DNA from: an uncultured Terrimonas sp.
Lineage (GTDB): Bacteria; Bacteroidota; Bacteroidia; Chitinophagales; Chitinophagaceae
Reading direction: 5' to 3'
DNA: 64,000 nt
Assembly (NCBI GenBank): GCA_964450515.1
Contig: CAYVEI010000001.1
Location: 12,885 to 76,884 of the forward strand
Position numbers and translations under genes: made by a program
Notes under the pieces: generated by a model
Seen by the model: only the letters and a program-made list of their open reading frames with translations
What the model was told of the DNA's origin: nothing
The model's database searches: none
Part shown: piece by piece, positions 2,310-62,194 of the stretch
How the letters are laid out: each line of letters starts with the position of its first letter
How positions within the stretch are numbered: position 1 is the first letter of the stretch

Positions 2310-4127
2310 ATGAATGTTATTACCCGGATCATTATCTTTATTTGCATAGTAGCAGGCACGCCCTCCGCTTTTTCACAATCGGCCTGGATACGCATTAACC
2401 AGTTGGGCTATACGCCTGAGGGCATTAAAGTGGCGGTATGGGGCGGTAAAGAAAAGCTGTCGTTTAAGCAATGGCAACTGGTAGACGCCGCTTCAAAAAA
2501 AGTGGTGTTCAGCGCAAAAGCAGGAAGGTCTTTGGGTGCTTACGGTCCGTTCAGGGAAACGCTGCGTTTAAACTTTTCTGCGTTCACGCAATCCGGGCGT
2601 TATTATTTGCAGGCAGGCGCTGTTGTGTCGCCCGAATTTGAAATTGGCAGGGATGTTTATAAAGGCGCGGCAGATTTTTGCTTATACTATATGCGCCAGC
2701 AACGCAATAAATTTAACCCCATAACCAAAGACAGTTGCCATACACAGGATGGCTATACTTTATACGGGCCCATGCCCGACAGTACCTTCATTGACGTTAG
2801 TGGCGGCTGGCACGATGCTACCGATTACCTGCAATACGTAACCACTTCAGCCAATGCCACCTTTCACCTGCTGGCCGCCTACCGCGATTTTCCGGGAGCT
2901 TTTGGCGATGCCCACCAGGCTAACGGGCTGGAAGGCAGCAATGATATACCCGATGTGTTAGATGAAGCACGGTGGGGGCTAGACTGGCTGCTGAAAATGC
3001 ACCCGCGGGCCGACTGGATGTTTAACCAGGTAGCCGACGACCGCGATCATATTGGGATGCGTATGCCCGGAATGGACAGCCAGTACGGCCGCGGATACCA
3101 GCGCCCGGTATATTTTGTAAGCGGGGCGCCGCAAATAAGAGGGAAATTTATGAACAACACCAGGGGCACTTCTTCAACGGCAGGAAAATTCAGCAGCGCT
3201 TTTTCGCTGGGAGCTCTCACTTTTAATTCGCTTGATAATAGTTATTCTCAAACATTAGAGGAAAAGTCGTACAGCGCCTTTGCATTTGGATTAAAGAAAC
3301 CGGGTAACACGCAAACCGCTTCGGTGGTATCGCCCTATATTTATGCCGAAGACAACTGGATGGACGATATGGAACTGGCCGGCGCTATGCTGGGCGATGC
3401 CGCCGCGCCGCAGTTAGGAGGAACCAACGGTATAGATTATGCATACAGCCTGGCGCAAAAGGAACCGTTAACACCCTGGCTGGGCGCCGATACCGCCAGT
3501 CATTACCAGTGGTATCCCTTTATTAATGTGGGTCATTATGAACTGATCAAAAAATTAAGCGATAAAAGAAAGGATACTGTAGCAGGCTACTACAAAAAGG
3601 GGATTGAACTGGTATGGAACAAAGCAAAGCAGAACGCTTTTTTGCGCGGCGTACCCTTTATATGGTGCAGCAATAACCTTACTACTTCATTTGCCATACA
3701 ATGTTACTGGTACCGGCAAGCCACAGGCGATACAAGTTTTGAAGAGCTGGAGCAGGCTAACTTCGACTGGCTGTTTGGCTGCAACCCCTGGGGAACCGGC
3801 ATGGTATATGGCCTGCCCGCCTGGGGCGATACGCCCGGCGACCCGCATGCGTCTTTTTTAAAAGTGGGAAATTTCCCGGTTAACGGCGGCATTGTGGATG
3901 GGCCGGTGTATGGCAGTATTTTTGGAAATCTCATAGGCCTTGAGCTTACTAAGCCCGACGCATACGCGCAGTTTCAAAGTCCATTGGCCGTATACCATGA
4001 TGATTCGGGTGATTACAGCACCAATGAACCCACTATGGATGGAACGGCTTCACTGATCTACCTGCTGGCGGCCAAGGAAAGCGGTGATGCTTCACCTGCA
4101 GGGGCAACTTCTAAAAAAAAACGCTAA
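2310..4127 (+). CDS. glycoside hydrolase family 9 enzyme with an N-terminal Ig-like domain
   Basis: 605-aa ORF with a signal peptide. GH9-type motifs are GGWHDATDYLQY, NWMDDMELAGAML and the C-terminal YHDDSGDYSTNEPTMDGTASLIYLLA. It ends right after an A9 tract. Confidence 0.75.
   Translation: MNVITRIIIFICIVAGTPSAFSQSAWIRINQLGYTPEGIKVAVWGGKEKLSFKQWQLVDAASKKVVFSAKAGRSLGAYGPFRETLRLNFSAFTQSGRYYLQAGAVVSPEFEIGRDVYKGAADFCLYYMRQQRNKFNPITKDSCHTQDGYTLYGPMPDSTFIDVSGGWHDATDYLQYVTTSANATFHLLAAYRDFPGAFGDAHQANGLEGSNDIPDVLDEARWGLDWLLKMHPRADWMFNQVADDRDHIGMRMPGMDSQYGRGYQRPVYFVSGAPQIRGKFMNNTRGTSSTAGKFSSAFSLGALTFNSLDNSYSQTLEEKSYSAFAFGLKKPGNTQTASVVSPYIYAEDNWMDDMELAGAMLGDAAAPQLGGTNGIDYAYSLAQKEPLTPWLGADTASHYQWYPFINVGHYELIKKLSDKRKDTVAGYYKKGIELVWNKAKQNAFLRGVPFIWCSNNLTTSFAIQCYWYRQATGDTSFEELEQANFDWLFGCNPWGTGMVYGLPAWGDTPGDPHASFLKVGNFPVNGGIVDGPVYGSIFGNLIGLELTKPDAYAQFQSPLAVYHDDSGDYSTNEPTMDGTASLIYLLAAKESGDASPAGATSKKKR
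4113..4121 (+). promoter_or_regulatory. A9 homopolymer, candidate -1 slippery site (A_AAA_AAA) at the GH9/deacetylase junction
   Basis: The zero-frame codons are tct aaa aaa aaa cgc taa. Reading on from 4121 in the -1 frame gives acg cta acc ..., the deacetylase frame. Confidence 0.4.
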
Positions 4128-56555: not shown

Positions 56556-56775
56556 CAGATGAATATTATATTTATAAAATAAAAATGCTGAAGACTTTAG
56601 AACATAAACAATTTACGATTCCAATGCGGAATATACAGCTATCATTATCTGTACGATATGGGTATGTGCAGGCCAACAACAGCAATGTGCCTGCAGGCCA
56701 TGAAGAGGACAGCAAACATACGCGACCGTGGTATAACTATACATAACCTGTATTGAACAGGCATAATGAAAAGGG

Positions 56776-56808
56776 ACCCGGTCGCAGCAAACGACCGGGT
56801 TTTTTGTT
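56776..56808 (+). terminator. rho-independent terminator
   Basis: 9-bp stem ACCCGGTCG / CGACCGGGT with a 7-nt loop, followed by TTTTTGTTG. Confidence 0.65.
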
Positions 56809-56863
56809 GCTGCATATAAAAATAGCGGGTATAGGATCATATCCTTTCTCCATAAACAACAAT

Positions 56864-56936
56864 GATCTGTTCGTCTAATGGTTCAGGACACAAGGTTTTC
56901 ATTCTTGAAATACGGGTTCAACTCCCGTACAGATTA
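56864..56936 (+). tRNA. tRNA-Glu (anticodon TTC), AT-rich, G1-U72 wobble
   Basis: Hand-folded cloverleaf. Acceptor GATCTGT/ACAGATT, D arm GTCT-AATGGTTCA-GGAC, anticodon arm CAAGG-TTTTCAT-TCTTG, T arm ACGGG-TTCAACT-CCCGT. No encoded CCA. Confidence 0.8.
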
Positions 56937-56939
56937 CAA

Positions 56940-57011
56940 GGTTCGTTGGTGTAACGGCTAACATCACAGATTGTCGATCTGTTGCTATGGGTTCGATTCC
57001 CGTACGAACCG
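56940..57011 (+). tRNA. tRNA-Asp (anticodon GTC)
   Basis: Acceptor GGTTCGT/ACGAACC, D arm GTGT-AACGGCTA-ACAT, anticodon arm ACAGA-TTGTCGA-TCTGT, T arm ATGGG-TTCGATT-CCCGT. It starts 3 nt after the previous tRNA. Confidence 0.8.
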
Positions 57012-57019
57012 CTGAAGCT

Positions 57020-57092
57020 TATTGAGTGGTGTAATGGTTCAGCATGTCAGTTTTTGACACTGGCGGTTTTGGTTCGAATCCAAACTCAATAA
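57020..57092 (+). tRNA. tRNA-Gln (anticodon TTG), U1-A72
   Basis: Acceptor TATTGAG/CTCAATA, anticodon arm TCAGT-TTTTGAC-ACTGG, T arm TTTGG-TTCGAAT-CCAAA. Confidence 0.8.
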
Positions 57093-57097
57093 CGCAT

Positions 57098-57171
57098 GTT
57101 GACTTCAGCTTATGCGCTAAAGCGCCACACTGTGAATGTGGAGAATTAGCGTTGGAATCTCGAAGTCAACC
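57098..57171 (+). tRNA. tRNA-His-like (anticodon GTG) with a degenerate T arm; possibly a pseudo-tRNA
   Basis: 8-bp-capable acceptor GTTGACTT/AAGTCAAC, a possible G-1:C73 pair as in tRNA-His. D arm GCTT-ATGCGCTA-AAGC and a perfect anticodon arm CCACA-CTGTGAA-TGTGG. The T loop is TTGGAAT (G instead of C56) and the T stem TAGCG/CTCGA has 2 mismatches. Confidence 0.55.
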
Positions 57172-57197
57172 AATACTGCCTGGTGTAAAGGCAATAG

Positions 57198-57271
57198 TGG
57201 CCCGTAGCTCAATTGGCAAGAGTATCCGGCTTTTAACCGGAGGGTTCAGGGTTCGAATCCCTGCGGACCAA
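57198..57271 (+). tRNA. tRNA-Lys (anticodon TTT), U1-A72 with a C4-A69 mismatch
   Basis: Acceptor TGGCCCG/CGGACCA, D arm GCTC-AATTGGCAA-GAGT, anticodon arm TCCGG-CTTTTAA-CCGGA, T arm CAGGG-TTCGAAT-CCCTG. Confidence 0.75.
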
Positions 57272-57275
57272 CGAT

Positions 57276-57347
57276 GGACGAATAGCTCCAATGGCAGAGC
57301 ATTGGTTTGAAGCACCAACTGTGCTGGTTCGAATCCGGCTTCGTCCA
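57276..57347 (+). tRNA. tRNA-Phe (anticodon GAA)
   Basis: Acceptor GGACGAA/TTCGTCC, D arm GCTC-CAATGGCA-GAGC, anticodon arm TTGGT-TTGAAGC-ACCAA, T arm GCTGG-TTCGAAT-CCGGC. Confidence 0.85.
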
Positions 57348-57384
57348 CAGATAAGAAGATTTTAAATACCTGTTAAGGAAGAAA

Positions 57385-57870
57385 ATGGAACAACAGCAAA
57401 AATGGAGGAAGTTATCCGGCGAAAGCGTTCAACAGCCGATTGAAGATGAGATAAGAACTGTGATCATAAGAGAAAAAGAGATGGGACATGCTTTAAAAAT
57501 CTGCATTGGCACCGACAGCCAGGTAAAGGGACGGGAAACTGAATTTGCGACTGTTATTGTGTTCATCCGGAAAGGGAAAGGAGGGTTCATGTATATACAC
57601 AATGAGATCACTACACAAAAGATGAGCATCAAACAACGGATGCTGACTGAGGTAGGTAAGAGTATTGAAGTGGCTTATGCCCTGTGCAATATTTTTTCGC
57701 GGTACAGTGTGGATATGGAAGTGCATGCCGACATCAACACTAACCCCAGCTTTAAAAGTAATGCTGCTTTGAAGGAAGCAATGGGTTATATTATGGGAAT
57801 AGGATTTGCCTTTAAAGCAAAACCGGAGGCCTTTGCAAGCTCAAGCTGCGCGAATAAGGTGGTACAGTAG
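57385..57870 (+). CDS. YkuK/DUF458-family RNase H-fold protein
   Basis: 161 aa. The signature IGTDSQ is followed by a TxFATVIV strand (CIGTDSQVKGRETEFATVIVFIRKGKGG). The C-terminal ...ASSSCANKVVQ resembles the YkuK C-terminus as I remember it. It starts 37 nt after tRNA-Phe. Confidence 0.65.
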   Translation: MEQQQKWRKLSGESVQQPIEDEIRTVIIREKEMGHALKICIGTDSQVKGRETEFATVIVFIRKGKGGFMYIHNEITTQKMSIKQRMLTEVGKSIEVAYALCNIFSRYSVDMEVHADINTNPSFKSNAALKEAMGYIMGIGFAFKAKPEAFASSSCANKVVQ

Positions 57871-57875
57871 CAATT

Positions 57876-57908
57876 ATGGTTGCCAATCTTCCAAAGGTTG
57901 GCAACCAT
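57876..57908. repeat. palindromic hairpin element, copy 1 (ATGGTTGCCAA-tcttccaaagg-TTGGCAACCAT)
   Basis: 11-bp perfect stem, directly after the YkuK stop, with flanks ATT...TTT shared with copy 2. Confidence 0.8.
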
Positions 57909-58021
57909 TTCCAAATAGCAGAAAGTAAGCCATCAGGATTCGAAGGTAGCGTGAACAAAAAGCGTTCTTTAAAATATAATAAGTTCCTTCTTAATGGGAA
58001 GGCTTAAAAAGCTTGCTTAAC

Positions 58022-58175
58022 GGCAAGATGGGGAACCTGCGTGTTAGCAGCAAACCGGATGTGTGTTTTAAAAGCACTATAGTGCGGCGGTAGTAACCTG
58101 CCGTATGCTGTTGCAATAACATGTATTTCCCTCTATAACCTGTGGGTCAGGGGTTCGAGTCCCTTTCCTGCCTCA
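58022..58175 (+). ncRNA. long tRNA-like element X: canonical T arm and 3' acceptor strand, with a candidate 5' acceptor partner about 140 nt upstream
   Basis: T arm AGGGG-TTCGAGT-CCCTT (58149-58165). The 3' strand TCCTGCC (58166-58172) is followed by TCA. The best 5' partner is GGCAAGA (58022-28; 6 of 7 pairs). The interior has several short hairpins, e.g. CGGCGG-tagtaac-CCTGCCG at 58085-58103. The fold is not resolved by hand. Confidence 0.4.
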
Positions 58176-58238
58176 GGCGGGATAGCTCAGCGGTTAGAGC
58201 AACAGGCAATTGCGGGTTCGAATCCCGCTCCCGCCTCA
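58176..58238 (+). ncRNA. tRNA-like element Y lacking the anticodon arm (acceptor + D arm + T arm only)
   Basis: Acceptor GGCGGGA/TCCCGCC is perfect. D arm GCTC-AGCGGTTA-GAGC and T arm GCGGG-TTCGAAT-CCCGC. Only 11 nt (AACAGGCAATT, 58201-58211) join the D and T arms where a tRNA has about 22-23 nt. A TCA tail follows. Confidence 0.6.
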
Positions 58239-58302
58239 GGCGGGATAGTTCAATGGTAGAACACAACACTTCGGATGTTGAGTAAAGAAGTACACTGCTT
58301 CT
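58239..58302 (+). ncRNA. tRNA-like element Z: 5' acceptor strand, D arm, anticodon-like arm and a non-canonical T-like hairpin, but no 3' acceptor strand
   Basis: GGCGGGA, then TA, then GTTC-AATGGTA-GAAC, then CAACA-CTTCGGA-TGTTG (nominal anticodon TCG; the loop can close as a C(UUCG)G tetraloop). Next comes AGAAG-TACACTG-CTTCT, followed by CAAAAAA instead of TCCCGCC. Confidence 0.45.
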
Positions 58303-58604
58303 CAAAAAATGGTGACGAATTAAAGTGAGGGTTATTTATCGGCCGGACTGCTTAAGTAAATATGCCGTAAGCATATATGCGACAGCAGTACGGCAACTGA
58401 TCTATCGCCAGTGTGCTATGCCAGTTGTAATGAGCGACAAAACACTTTTTTATCTGGGTTCTTTGCCTGCGGGCAGTGAAAGATAAAAAACTGCCTTGTC
58501 TAACATCACAGCGCTTAATGCCCGCTATACAAAGTGATAAATAATCCTGACTTTAATATTAAGCAAGGAAGATTTTAATATAGTAACAGTTAAAAGAGAA
58601 GAAG

Positions 58605-59705
58605 ATGAAAAATGTAAAAGTAAACGCCTACCAGGTTGGATTGGTTTTTAAAAATGGCGTGTATCAGCGGATGCTGAACGAAGGAAGCTACTGGTTCTGG
58701 AGCAATGAAACCGTGCAGTTATTTGATATAACCAAGCCATTCAATGCACCAGTGGAGCTGAATTTATTATTAAAGGATGCTGCACTTGCTGAGGCATTAC
58801 TTGTACTGGACGTAAAAGACAATGAAATTGCTTTACAATATAAGAACGGTTTGCTGGAAGCAGTATTCGGTGCAGGTCGTTATGCCTTTTGGAAAGGCGC
58901 TGTTGAATACAAATTCATAAACGCAGATATTGGAAAGATTGAGATCACTGAACCTGTAGAACGAACGGTATTGTTACATCGCCTGGTTGCCCCATTCGTT
59001 CGTAGCGTAAGTGTGGAAAGCTTTGAAAAAGCGGTATTGTTTATTGACGGAAAATTTATGCAGGTTTTGCAAAGTGGCGTATACTATTGGTGGAAGAATG
59101 CAATTGCCGTACATGTTGGTAAAATAGATACCCGTCAACAGCAACTGGAGATCAATGGCCAGGAAATTCTGACCAAAGATAAAGCGGCATTGCGTATCAA
59201 CGCATGGGCGCAATACCAGGTAACTGATATTGAAAAAGCCCTGCTGCAAAACAAAGAATACGACAGGCAATTGTATGTGGCATTTCAACTGGCATTGCGG
59301 GAATATGTAGCCGGCTTTGGATTTGATGAATTGCTGGAGAAAAAAGAAGCCATTACTCCTTTCATTTTGCAAAGTGTACAGAAAAACGCTGAAGCATTGG
59401 GTATAGTGGTGAATGGTTTCGGCATCCGTGATATCATATTGCCGGGCGATGTAAAGGAGATCATGAACCAGGTATTGATCGCTGAAAAGAAAGCGCAGGC
59501 AAACACCATCATGCGCAGGGAAGAAACTGCCAGCACCCGAAGCTTGCTGAACACTGCCAGGCTGATGGAAGAAAACGCAATGTTGTGGAAACTGAAGGAA
59601 ATGGAATACGTGGAAAAGATCGCAGAAAAGATTAGCAACATTAGTGTAAGTGGCAACGGTGTATTGATTGAGCAGTTGAAGGAGATTTTTGTGCCGAAGA
59701 AATAG
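58605..59705 (+). CDS. SPFH/Band-7 (slipin-like) domain protein without a TM segment
   Basis: The C-terminal half is typical SPFH (IRDIILPGDVKEIMNQVLIAEKKAQANTIMRREETAS...). The N-terminal half has three related segments (VGLVFKNGVYQRMLNEGSYWFW / IALQYKNGLLEAVFGAGRYAFW / AVLFIDGKFMQVLQSGVYYWW). I see no hydrophobic anchor. Confidence 0.75.
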   Translation: MKNVKVNAYQVGLVFKNGVYQRMLNEGSYWFWSNETVQLFDITKPFNAPVELNLLLKDAALAEALLVLDVKDNEIALQYKNGLLEAVFGAGRYAFWKGAVEYKFINADIGKIEITEPVERTVLLHRLVAPFVRSVSVESFEKAVLFIDGKFMQVLQSGVYYWWKNAIAVHVGKIDTRQQQLEINGQEILTKDKAALRINAWAQYQVTDIEKALLQNKEYDRQLYVAFQLALREYVAGFGFDELLEKKEAITPFILQSVQKNAEALGIVVNGFGIRDIILPGDVKEIMNQVLIAEKKAQANTIMRREETASTRSLLNTARLMEENAMLWKLKEMEYVEKIAEKISNISVSGNGVLIEQLKEIFVPKK

Positions 59706-59876: not shown

Positions 59877-60596
59877 ATGCAAAGTAGAACGATAAGTATC
59901 AAAGCAGAAACCTTTAATTATCCTACAAAAGAAGAACGGTTGAATGCAAATGAAGATTTTCCAAAACTGAAAGTCTTTGATTTTGAAGAAAAAAATGCAA
60001 TAGACCTTCATCTAAATCATAATATCGATTTAGATAGATCTTCATCATATCATAATTTGTACTGGTGGAATAATTGTTTATCTAACAGAATAGGAAAGTT
60101 ACATGAAACCTTTGTCTATGTGCATACGCATTATCATAGAGGCTTTTTAGAAGATATTACAACATGTTCTGAAATAGAAATCGCTAATAAGTTACAATTT
60201 GAATATTATGCTGAATTATTTTACTATTTCTATGTTTCGACAAGAGATATTGTTTATCAAATAGTAAACCTTTATTGCAATTGTAAAATTTTGGATCGCC
60301 AAGTTTCCTTCACTGAATTAATAAATAAGCTAAACGACTTCCCTGAAATTAAGAAATTATTGCGGGACTTTAATAATACAATAAAATCTTCTTCTGATAT
60401 AAGAAATGGTTTTGCTCATAGATTTACTCCAACGATCAAAGACTATAGAACTGATACTTCAAAAATTAATGAACGAATTTCATTGAGCTTTAAAGAAGGG
60501 GAGCATCTTTCATCTGAAGAGATCGTTACAAATATTAATTTTTCTCTAAAAGAACTTGAAATAGCAATAAGCAGCTTAAAAGAAAATATGAAATAG
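59877..60596 (+). CDS. predicted HEPN-domain protein (candidate RNase), AT-rich
   Basis: 239 aa, largely helical by composition. An R-x4-H motif RNGFAH at R176-H181 (nt 60402-60419) with the usual Asn after Arg. Two 60-nt lines counted at 25% (60001-60060) and 32% GC (60061-60120), against 65% for a line inside rtcB (61081-61140). The family cannot be assigned by eye. Confidence 0.5.
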   Translation: MQSRTISIKAETFNYPTKEERLNANEDFPKLKVFDFEEKNAIDLHLNHNIDLDRSSSYHNLYWWNNCLSNRIGKLHETFVYVHTHYHRGFLEDITTCSEIEIANKLQFEYYAELFYYFYVSTRDIVYQIVNLYCNCKILDRQVSFTELINKLNDFPEIKKLLRDFNNTIKSSSDIRNGFAHRFTPTIKDYRTDTSKINERISLSFKEGEHLSSEEIVTNINFSLKELEIAISSLKENMK

Positions 60597-60727
60597 CAAA
60601 ACATGAAAAGCGAGCCGAAACCCGAACGGAGCGTCGCAACATCAGCTCAACCGAAGTTACGGAGCTGGAATCAAAAACCTCTGTGTTCTTCCGTGTCTCC
60701 CTGCCTCCATGGTTCAAAACAAAAACA

Positions 60728-62194
60728 ATGAGCAAGTTAAAAATAACAGGAAAAGAATTAAGAGCCATCGGCTACCCCGAAAGCCGGGTGATAAGCGTGG
60801 CAATAAATGTGATGCAAAAAAATTATAAGCATCATAATAAGGAGAAAGTATTGGAACTATTAAAAAAAATACTGGAAGCGCCGGCTGCATATAAAGACGA
60901 TGGGGTACTGGCATTGATTGCAGAAAAATTGCTGCATACGCTTCACAAGGATAAGGGTGACCATACAGGAGGGGTACAGGTATCATTGCATAGTTCGGGT
61001 ATTCCATTTAATGTATTTGGCAGCGAGCATATTGAAGAAGGCGCCATGCACCAGATGTATACCGCGGCTAAGCTGCCCGTGGCCGTTGCGGGGGCTTTAA
61101 TGCCCGATGCCCACAGCGGTTACGGCTTGCCGATAGGTGGTGTGCTGGCAACACACAACGCGGTAATACCTTACGGCGTTGGCGTGGATATTGGCTGCCG
61201 CATGTGTTTGAGCGTGTTTGATATGGATCCGAAGGAGTTGCTGAAAAAGGAAAATTATTTTATAAGGGAATTAAATGAAGCCACCCTGTTTGGGAGCGGA
61301 AAGCAATTTGATCATGCTGCTGATCACGAAGTAATGGATCGCCCGGAATTCGGAGCGCTGCCCTTACTGAAAAACCTGCACGGACGGGCATGGAAACAAT
61401 TGGGATCATCCGGCTCCGGCAATCATTTTGCAGAGTTTGGCGTGGTGGAGATCAGCCAAAAAGATGAAATATTGGGCATTGACGCAGGGACCTATATAGG
61501 TTTGCTTTCGCATTCCGGCTCAAGGGCATTGGGTGCGGCTATTGCTAATCATTATACAAAGATCGCTAAACAAAAAAGACGCCTGCCGGGTGAAGCCGCT
61601 AACCTTGCCTGGCTGAACTTAGATGAAGAAGCCGGTATGGAATACTGGATATCCATGAACCTGGCAGGCGATTATGCTTCTGCCTGCCACCATATTATAC
61701 ATGCAAAGCTTGCAGGGCAACTGGGAACAAAAGCCATGAAGATGGTGGAGAACCACCACAATTTTGCCTGGAAGGAAGTGTGGGAAGGAAAGGAAGTGAT
61801 CGTTCATCGCAAAGGCGCTACACCTGCTGGCAAAAATGTATTGGGCATTATTCCCGGCAGCATGACCGCTAATGGATTTATAGTAAAAGGAAAAGGAGAG
61901 GAAGCCTCTGTGAATTCCGCATCGCATGGAGCAGGCAGGCAAATGAGCCGCAGCAAAGCGTTACAATCTGTTACCGAAAGTGCATTAAAGCAGGAGCTAA
62001 AAAAACACGGTGTAAAATTGATCGGCGGCGGACTGGATGAAGCGCCTTTTGCCTACAAGGATATTCATACTGTGATGCAAAGTCAACAGCAATTGGTAGA
62101 GGTGGTGGGAAAATTCGCACCAAAAATTGTGAAAATGGACGGCGCAAAGCATAAAATGTGGGGAAAGAAAAGAGATGAACCAACAGGTGAGTAG
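60728..62194 (+). CDS. rtcB: RNA 3'-phosphate/2',3'-cyclic phosphate ligase RtcB, with an N-terminal extension of roughly 95 aa
   Basis: RtcB metal and GMP-site motifs MPDAHSGYG, VDIGCRM, GSGNHFAEF, HSGSRALG and ENHHNFAW. I prefer the ATG at 60728 (MSKLKITGKEL...). Confidence 0.9.
   Translation: MSKLKITGKELRAIGYPESRVISVAINVMQKNYKHHNKEKVLELLKKILEAPAAYKDDGVLALIAEKLLHTLHKDKGDHTGGVQVSLHSSGIPFNVFGSEHIEEGAMHQMYTAAKLPVAVAGALMPDAHSGYGLPIGGVLATHNAVIPYGVGVDIGCRMCLSVFDMDPKELLKKENYFIRELNEATLFGSGKQFDHAADHEVMDRPEFGALPLLKNLHGRAWKQLGSSGSGNHFAEFGVVEISQKDEILGIDAGTYIGLLSHSGSRALGAAIANHYTKIAKQKRRLPGEAANLAWLNLDEEAGMEYWISMNLAGDYASACHHIIHAKLAGQLGTKAMKMVENHHNFAWKEVWEGKEVIVHRKGATPAGKNVLGIIPGSMTANGFIVKGKGEEASVNSASHGAGRQMSRSKALQSVTESALKQELKKHGVKLIGGGLDEAPFAYKDIHTVMQSQQQLVEVVGKFAPKIVKMDGAKHKMWGKKRDEPTGE

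Follow-up and report, generated by a model that had tools for sequence, protein, structure and literature searches.

A transfer RNA-like RNA in an SPFH/RtcB gene cassette

A stretch of 64,000 nucleotides (nt) from an uncultured Terrimonas sp. of the Chitinophagaceae (contig CAYVEI010000001.1, assembly GCA_964450515.1, positions 12,885 to 76,884; the window in what follows) carries on its forward (+) strand an array of transfer RNA (tRNA) genes (56864-57348), a gene for an RNase H-like protein (PF04308/DUF458; 57385-57870; Pfam E = 7.9e-37), a tRNA-like RNA, an SPFH/Band-7 ("slipin") gene (58605-59705; Pfam Band_7 E = 1.1e-31), a gene of the predicted ribonuclease (RNase) family HEPN_Cthe2314 (59877-60596; Pfam E = 7.7e-12) and an RtcB RNA ligase gene (60683-62194; Pfam E = 4.5e-79). 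This order is conserved, the HEPN gene being the local example of a variable cargo that lies between SPFH and RtcB. For comparison, 80 Chitinophagaceae genomes with homologues of the window SPFH protein (67-90% identity) were used; the RNase H-like gene is found upstream in 55 and the RtcB gene downstream in 50 of these 80 loci. An earlier note on this DNA had described the segment 58176-58238 (+) as a discrete tRNA-like RNA that possesses acceptor, D and T arms, lacks the anticodon arm and might serve as decoy, sensor or scaffold for the SPFH/RtcB module. A blastn search located the element upstream of SPFH in about 68 of the 80 genomes. As our comparison shows, the 63-nt element is not a unit and straddles the point where two circularly permuted tRNA-like domains meet in tandem.

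What had been read from the letters is present in the window. There is a perfect complementarity of 7 base pairs (bp) between GGCGGGA (58176-58182) and TCCCGCC (58230-58236), a D arm TA-GCTC-AGCGGTTA-GAGC (58183-58200), an 11-nt linker AACAGGCAATT (58201-58211), a T arm GCGGG-TTCGAAT-CCCGC (58212-58228) and, on both flanks, the junction GCC TCA GGCGGGA (58166-58182 and 58229-58245). The Rfam tRNA model (RF00005) matched 58176-58236 with 50.8 bits, above its gathering score of 29 (E = 5.9e-8 for the 64-kb window), and in this local alignment the 17-nt anticodon arm was skipped; no full cloverleaf was recovered. ARAGORN made no tRNA call at 58176-58238, nor in the equivalent region of the 57 homologous loci scanned. 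The isolated 63-mer folds exactly as had been proposed (-27.6 kcal/mol, z = -2.6). The observation is thus confirmed as real and above chance. In a context of 148 nt, single-sequence folding became ambiguous, with closed hairpins in the minimum-energy fold and nested long-range pairings in the centroid. Because the two neighbouring hairpins are nearly identical, the window alone cannot separate the two registers.

The 63-nt element spans two permuted tRNA-like domains

The first sign of a different register came from two sub-threshold Rfam matches to YrlA RNA (RF02553), at 58141-58204 (34.9 bits) and at 58210-58262 (39.1 bits), which span model positions 23-85 and 29-81, respectively, the part in which a T arm is followed by a closed acceptor hairpin and a D arm. 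In the YrlA register, GGCGGGA at 58176 pairs with an upstream TCCTGCC across a TCA loop, and TCCCGCC at 58230 pairs with a downstream GGCGGGA. The 63-nt element would then consist of pieces of two neighbours: the acceptor 5' strand, D arm 1 and the 3' strand of the enclosing stem from the 3' part of module 1, and the variable loop, T arm 2 and the acceptor 3' strand from the 5' part of module 2.

Both registers were compared across homologous loci, at first in an alignment-free way, by means of 7-nt strands whose position was set by the T and D arms of 60 sequences. Closed hairpins 1 and 2 formed on average 5.6 and 6.0 of 7 pairs, whereas the long-range acceptor of the earlier note formed 3.8, close to the 4.0 obtained for a negative control. 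Paired percentages and covariation were derived from a sequence-only MAFFT alignment of 54 sequences (A2). In this alignment the permuted model was 94.0% paired, 35 of its 41 pairs showed double changes, and it reached a covariation score of 0.66 versus 0.215 for shuffled and at most 0.15 for slid controls; the shuffled values are not to be taken as probabilities, because the comparative set represents essentially one bacterial family and its counts are not phylogenetically independent. This problem does not affect the slid controls, nor the tertiary pair and the insertions and deletions of modules that are described below. The two closed hairpins were paired in 84.1 and 89.1% of cases, respectively, and both covary. 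In contrast, the long-range acceptor, formed by the strand before D arm 1 and the strand after T arm 2, was paired in only 55.9%, its five inner pairs occurring in about 30-55% of the sequences. An alignment of homologous regions had been suggested as a way to find compensatory changes, and these are indeed seen for the D and T arms and for the neighbouring hairpins; the long-range acceptor is not conserved by covariation.

A tertiary contact leads to the same distinction. The Levitt pair (15:48) joins position 15 of the D loop to the last nucleotide of the variable loop, and it could be formed in 50 of 54 sequences (25 A:U and 25 G:C) when the linker before T arm 2 was combined with D arm 2, and in 49 of 54 when the first variable loop was combined with D arm 1. 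Combination of the linker before T arm 2 with D arm 1, as the normal register demands, gave 24 of 54 and the control 28 of 54.

Natural variants of the RNA gain or lose their parts always as units of T arm, acceptor hairpin and D arm. About 58 loci have two such modules and one locus (L057, about 3000-3210) has three in tandem. Module 1 is absent from L031, L050, L051, L059 and L068, where its stem is capped by a 7-nt loop, and T arm 2, hairpin 2 and D arm 2 are absent from L015, L027 and the Chitinophaga loci. Among the natural variants, D arm 1 and T arm 2 were never gained or lost together, and in single-module variants that lack one or the other the 63-nt unit cannot exist. In L057, ARAGORN produced a spurious "tRNA-Phe" call with a long insertion that spans the three modules. 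In L031 and L051 module 1 is replaced by hairpins, and in L069 and L074 similar hairpins lie downstream; their 7-nt loops (CUGAAAA or CUGGAAA) resemble anticodon loops with a GAA triplet.

With a covariance model of the permuted structure (R1), full-length matches of 88-149 bits were obtained immediately upstream of SPFH and on the gene strand only, in the window and in 63 loci (62 of them above 99 bits). The proposed tie of the RNA to the SPFH/RtcB module holds. Weaker R1 matches of 16-73 bits occurred at tRNA-tRNA junctions in the neighbouring arrays; the YrlA model likewise matches at such junctions, an artefact that has been described (Chen et al., 2014). The decay of stems that would mark a deletion-bearing pseudogene was not seen, the RNA being conserved with covariation in more than 60 species.

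These tests demonstrate that the normal-register reading is wrong in the Chitinophagaceae loci. The complementarity between the long-range acceptor strands is a property of the window and not a conserved pairing. Two adjacent permuted modules can therefore mimic a truncated tRNA both in a single sequence and in a search with a tRNA covariance model.

Anatomy of the RNA and its relation to known RNAs

The conserved structured RNA has a core of roughly 320 nt or more (about 58012-58335, +), and all its elements in the window lie on the + strand. No terminator-like site was found on this strand between the RNA and the SPFH start, and the RNA is therefore probably the leader of the SPFH messenger RNA. 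About 270 poorly conserved nt separate the core from the SPFH start codon. A putative promoter, TGAACA-17-TATAAT (57952-57980), overlaps a conserved block and scored 10 of 12 in a consensus scan, which taken alone is not above the expectation from shuffled sequence.

The 5' domain (58012-58114) comprises 25 pairs, 19 of them with compensatory changes, according to RNAalifold on 54 sequences. It begins with hairpin U1 (58012-58027) and continues as a three-way junction in which a stem of GCAA (58050-58053) and TTGC (58111-58114) encloses hairpins U2 (58059-58080) and U3 (58082-58106). U3 has the form GTGCGGC...GCCGTAT with near-invariant G.U pairs, and it belongs to the near-invariant stretch AGTGCAG...CTGTATGCTGTTG (58082-58114 in the window), a stem with conserved G.U pairs that is the most conserved sequence of the whole RNA. 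A possible pairing of a CCCTC tract (about 58130) with GAGGG (58327-58331) was considered and rejected, since no covariation was apparent in other loci as judged by eye.

Module 1 (58139-58206) is a YrlA-type circularly permuted tRNA-like domain, and all its helices are paired in 84-100% of the 54 sequences, with double changes. An anticodon-like stem of 4-5 bp, CCTGT (58139-58143) with ACAGG (58202-58206), is open at its far end and encloses the variable loop GGGTC, which lies between the CCTGT strand and the T arm, followed by T arm 1 (58149-58165), the closed acceptor hairpin TCCTGCC-TCA-GGCGGGA (58166-58182), the dinucleotide TA, D arm 1 (58185-58200) and a single A before the 3' strand of the stem. 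Module 2 (58207-58280) looks like a complete circularly permuted tRNA, with all four tRNA arms in permuted order and supported by covariation. It consists of the variable loop CAATT (58207-58211), T arm 2 (58212-58228), the closed acceptor hairpin TCCCGCC-TCA-GGCGGGA (58229-58245), again TA, D arm 2 (58248-58262), a single A and the anticodon arm CAACA-CTTCGGA-TGTTG (58264-58280). The arm that had been called missing is thus present in complete form in module 2, and module 1 has an open stem in its place. The loops of the acceptor hairpins measure 0-11 nt among the loci and have no conserved CCA, and many of these hairpins are only 5-6 bp long.

When module 2 was rejoined in silico by placing its 5' half (acceptor 5' strand, D arm 2 and anticodon arm) before its 3' half (variable loop, T arm 2 and acceptor 3' strand), ARAGORN called a tRNA of 72-75 nt in 59 of 62 loci; the window sequence gave a tRNA of 72 nt with the anticodon TCG. 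Across the loci 24 different "anticodons" resulted, with Leu and Ser triplets on class-I bodies that have a short variable loop, and the calls also include a CUA triplet and 8-nt loops. In 54 sequences the loop kept the generic signature of an anticodon loop (Y32 in 49, U33 in 46, R37 in 52 and A38 in 48), positions 34-36 being nearly unconstrained. A recent conversion of module 2 by array tRNA genes was considered and rejected, since the matches found, of 15-23 nt and to T or D arms, were of a generic kind only.

Downstream of module 2, the hairpin AGAAG-TACACTG-CTTCT (58286-58302), whose stem covaries in alignment A4, is followed by an A-rich linker of two length classes and by the strand TGGTG (58310-58314), which pairs with the hairpin loop to form an H-type pseudoknot. 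At least four Watson-Crick pairs between loop and tail were possible in 55 of 62 loci, as opposed to 29% when loops and tails were swapped between loci, and the covarying variants comprise CACC/GGTG, CAGC/GCTG, CATC/GATG, CGCC/GGCG and TGCC/GGCA. The strongly conserved core ends with the motif TTAAAG-TGAGGGTTAT (58320-58335), as seen in the conservation profile and in alignment A4. A sensitive Rfam scan of 56700-58700 (E <= 1) detected only tRNA, YrlA and chance-level matches, and no ribozyme, riboswitch or Pedo-repair RNA over the 5' domain or the pseudoknot.

YrlA RNAs are described in the literature as circularly permuted tRNAs with closed acceptor stems that adopt an L-shaped fold and are modified by TruB and DusA. 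The modules described here share with them the order of variable loop, T arm, loop-closed acceptor and D arm enclosed by an anticodon-like stem, the nucleotides for tRNA tertiary contacts and the link to RtcB repair operons. They differ in that two modules stand in tandem (one to three among the relatives), one of them with a complete anticodon stem-loop, in that there are additional conserved 5' and 3' domains, and in their protein partner, which is SPFH. Where YrlA has its Ro60-binding stem, the flanks are here a different 5' domain and the second module. The RNA contains permuted tRNA-like domains of the YrlA kind but does not qualify as a YrlA RNA, from which score, Ro60-binding stem and linkage to rsr set it apart.

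The earlier note had mentioned that a tRNA-like RNA was predicted for Band-7/RtcB operons, and such a prediction exists. The Band-7-associated tRNA-like RNA (b7a-tRNA) was predicted by Burroughs and Aravind (NAR, 2016), was still unvalidated in 2018 and is reported to "strongly resemble an authentic tRNA", as quoted in Wang et al. (bioRxiv 10.1101/312249). By this secondary description, it is a non-coding tRNA-like RNA that lies by a Band-7/SPFH gene and RtcB and recurs across phyla, and the Chitinophagaceae RNA fits this genomic definition of the class; however, it is permuted, in tandem and part of a larger RNA. Compared with the literature considered, the following features appear to be new: one to three tandem permuted modules, the presence of a complete permuted tRNA whose anticodon is hypervariable, the additional conserved domains and the refutation of the normal register, although some of them may already stand in Burroughs and Aravind (2016).

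Full-length SPFH homologues with 35-40% identity also have a tRNA-like element upstream of their genes. In Subdoligranulum, a T arm, a closed 7-bp acceptor hairpin, a D-like arm and a hairpin precede the SPFH gene, and RtcB lies downstream. In Escherichia coli, an island composed of slipin, nucleotidyltransferase and zeta toxin genes lies between yjbD and lysC (L084; L081, 4808-4842) in 1632 of 5426 complete genomes (about 30%), and the unannotated 530-nt region upstream of slipin contains a T arm, a closed 7-bp acceptor hairpin and AAAGTGAGGG; the similarity of this last sequence to the 3' motif of the Chitinophagaceae RNA is a weak observation. Burkholderia multivorans (L083, 4401-4510) has a tRNA-like element in normal register (Rfam tRNA, 44 bits) upstream of SPFH, with RtcB downstream. 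In place of the anticodon arm it has GCCGGC-AAAG-GCCGGC, a stem of 6 bp that ends in a tetraloop, and it is preceded by an extra T arm in an apparent minihelix. This example matches the resemblance to an authentic tRNA that is quoted for b7a-tRNA. The arrangement of RNA, SPFH and RtcB recurs in Bacillota, with the closed 7-bp acceptor hairpin, and in Burkholderia, and the RNA class is thus broad, with a register that differs between lineages and phyla.

Possible roles of the RNA and the neighbouring genes

We consider it probable that the locus encodes two tandem permuted tRNA mimics of YrlA type within a conserved RNA, which is a tRNA-shaped partner of the proteins of the SPFH/RtcB operon. 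By analogy with YrlA, both modules would fold as L-shaped tRNA mimics, as the elbow nucleotides of the D and T loops, U8, A14 and the 15:48 pair are kept, and their sealed acceptor ends would prevent aminoacylation. The earlier suggestion that the RNA keeps the elbow and the acceptor end of a tRNA holds for the elbow, the D and T arms being genuine and strongly conserved; the acceptor ends, however, are sealed by loops, and because of this, neither RNase Z nor the CCA-adding enzyme would be expected to recognise the RNA as transcribed. The RNA might bind the SPFH protein, RtcB or both, in the way in which Y RNA acts with Ro60.

The AlphaFold2 model of the SPFH protein, which is of moderate confidence with a predicted local distance difference test (pLDDT) score of 74.6, contains three N-terminal 5-stranded beta repeats, the SPFH domain and long C-terminal helices, and the protein has no hydrophobic N-terminus. 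Foldseek matched the model to the cage-forming stomatin, HflK/C and prohibitin, and the longest alignments were obtained with major vault protein. Beta repeats, an SPFH-like shoulder, a long helix and a small structured RNA are also features of the vault, which consists of major vault protein, the TROVE-domain protein TEP1 and vault RNA; the resemblance is structural only and concerns a predicted model of the SPFH protein, not a cage. The SPFH protein may thus be a "mini-vault" that is paired with an RNA.

Two roles for the RNA can be imagined. As a scaffold it would recruit or hold the ligase and broken tRNAs, and we regard this as a real possibility that falls somewhat short of an even chance. 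A role as decoy, in which the RNA would occupy tRNA-directed nucleases as a competitor that is not consumed, seems to us clearly less likely; a function as competitive inhibitor has been proposed for YrlA as well.

Several points weigh against this reading, apart from the relatedness of the genomes compared. The long-range pairing is perfect and thermodynamically competitive in the window and may exist there as a minor alternative conformer. The YrlA matches of 39.1 and 34.9 bits are far below the gathering score of 69, the Ro60-binding stem is lacking (model positions 1-22 and 86-114 are unmatched) and no rsr (TROVE) gene was found among the four operon genes (RNase H-like, Band_7, HEPN and RtcB), the rest of the 64-kb window not having been screened for TROVE. 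The Burkholderia homologue is in normal register, and closed acceptors are thus not universal in the class. Finally, the function of the RNA is something that we infer in its entirety.

Among the alternatives, a damage-sensing leader fares best, although we consider it unlikely. The anticodon loop of module 2 would serve as bait, and its cleavage by an anticodon nuclease, either an invading one or the neighbouring HEPN protein, would sever the leader or refold it via the pseudoknot and so alter the expression of SPFH and RtcB, with RtcB possibly resealing the cut. The position of the RNA directly upstream of SPFH with no terminator-like site in between, the conserved pseudoknot immediately 3' of module 2 and the retention of the anticodon-loop signature around hypervariable positions 34-36 are all consistent with this idea, and the Salmonella rtcBA operon is known from the literature to be induced by cleaved tRNAs. 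However, no attenuator and no structure sequestering the start codon were identified, the poorly conserved spacer separates the core from the start codon, the bait arm is lacking or replaced in variants with module 1 only, and the variation of the triplet is equally well explained by a lack of constraint.

Slightly less credible still is the idea that module 2 is a working permuted tRNA substrate and not a passive mimic. In a first version, its anticodon loop would be a fast-evolving bait that is cut by anticodon nucleases and resealed by RtcB, and the RNA would have an inbuilt sensor of attacks on tRNA or a decoy to be sacrificed in them. In a second version, module 2 would be matured into a tRNA through circularisation by RtcB and opening of the acceptor loop, which would make it the first bacterial example of a permuted tRNA gene.

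A discrete RNA of about 63 nt with free acceptor ends, acting as decoy, sensor or scaffold in the normal tRNA register, is very unlikely in view of the comparative tests. Besides the perfect complementarity and the Rfam tRNA score, the Burkholderia homologue and one property of the window speak in its favour: both hairpin stems of the window have 7 bp, as has the YrlA RNA of Mycobacterium smegmatis, which is cut by RNase P and receives CCA, and cutting both loops would free exactly 58176-58238. RNase P is believed to act poorly on most YrlA RNAs. The short acceptor loops without conserved CCA, together with the pairing data, the Levitt pair and the single-module variants, argue against this possibility.

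We give even less credit to the proposal that module 2 is a true permuted pre-tRNA, in which RtcB would ligate G58280 to C58207 and the acceptor loop would be opened to yield a linear tRNA, as in Cyanidioschyzon. In Cyanidioschyzon merolae and some archaea, permuted tRNA genes also have the 3' half upstream of the 5' half, a short intervening sequence connects their acceptor ends, an RtcB-type ligase is of relevance there too, and module 2 becomes a complete cloverleaf when rejoined. Further points in favour are that RtcB is encoded in the same operon, that there is a precedent and that Wang et al. raised the same idea for YrlA. However, the known permuted genes are matured to decoding tRNAs via bulge-helix-bulge splicing and a circular intermediate, and according to the YrlA literature bacteria are not known to have a splicing endonuclease or a bulge-helix-bulge motif. 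Moreover, the "anticodon" of module 2 is not conserved, and a decoding tRNA would not drift through 24 triplets that include Leu and Ser on bodies with short variable loops, CUA and 8-nt loops; many acceptor hairpins are of only 5-6 bp and none has an encoded CCA.

Least probable is a functionless relic of a decayed tandem tRNA array, for which the R1 matches at tRNA-tRNA junctions and the dimeric-tRNA origin of YrlA proposed by Wang et al. might be cited, and which is in effect excluded by covariation. Position and order are kept in more than 60 species, every helix and the tertiary pair show compensatory changes, hairpin-like covariation would not arise between acceptor strands that belong to separate neighbouring tRNAs, and there is no recent similarity to the array tRNAs beyond generic arms.

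The reading as two tandem YrlA-type mimics matters in the context of RtcB repair operons, which are widespread and whose bacterial substrates and cofactors are largely unknown. The RNA predicted for Band-7/RtcB operons, unvalidated as of 2018 and with no later test found in the literature, has now an anatomy backed by covariation in one large family: tandem mimics with sealed acceptors, one of them with a generic anticodon loop, a 5' domain, a 3' pseudoknot and a firm association with tRNA arrays and with an SPFH protein that resembles major vault protein. A preprint on RlaP makes no mention of the RNA. From this analysis, exact coordinates and a covariance model are available, and Pinibacter aurantiacus MAH-26 (L005), Niastella caeni (L033), Niastella populi (L037) and Chitinophaga arvensicola DSM 3695 (L077) are cultured carriers of the RNA.

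With regard to the neighbouring proteins, no PADLOC family was assigned to the RNase H-like, SPFH, HEPN and RtcB proteins and no real phage match was found for the SPFH protein. An origin from phage or defence systems was rejected on these grounds, and seven motif matches on viral contigs failed with R1 and are attributed to chance. The spacer between SPFH and RtcB varies from about 30 nt to 3.3 kb among the loci (L001-L080), which suggests that it is a slot for variable cargo genes.

The tRNA array of the window, as identified by ARAGORN and Rfam, contains genes for Glu-UUC, Asp-GUC, Gln-UUG, an atypical His-GUG-like tRNA, Lys-UUU and Phe-GAA. The atypical gene (57098-57171, +) has the anticodon loop CUGUGAA and the T loop GUUGGAAUC; it scored 36.8 bits with Rfam and was not called by ARAGORN, and a normal tRNA-His occupies its position in other loci. 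Similar same-strand arrays, with up to 15 tRNA genes in a roughly kept order, precede the RNase H-like gene in most Chitinophagaceae loci (within L004-L079), and at least three tRNAs are present in 47 of 80 loci. Phe-GAA, Lys-UUU, Asn, His, Asp, Gln, Arg-ACG and Ile-GAU are the commonest isotypes, and the unusual Ile-UAU is present too. Many of these isotypes are targets of anticodon nucleases, and for this reason the arrays might represent spare or protected tRNAs.

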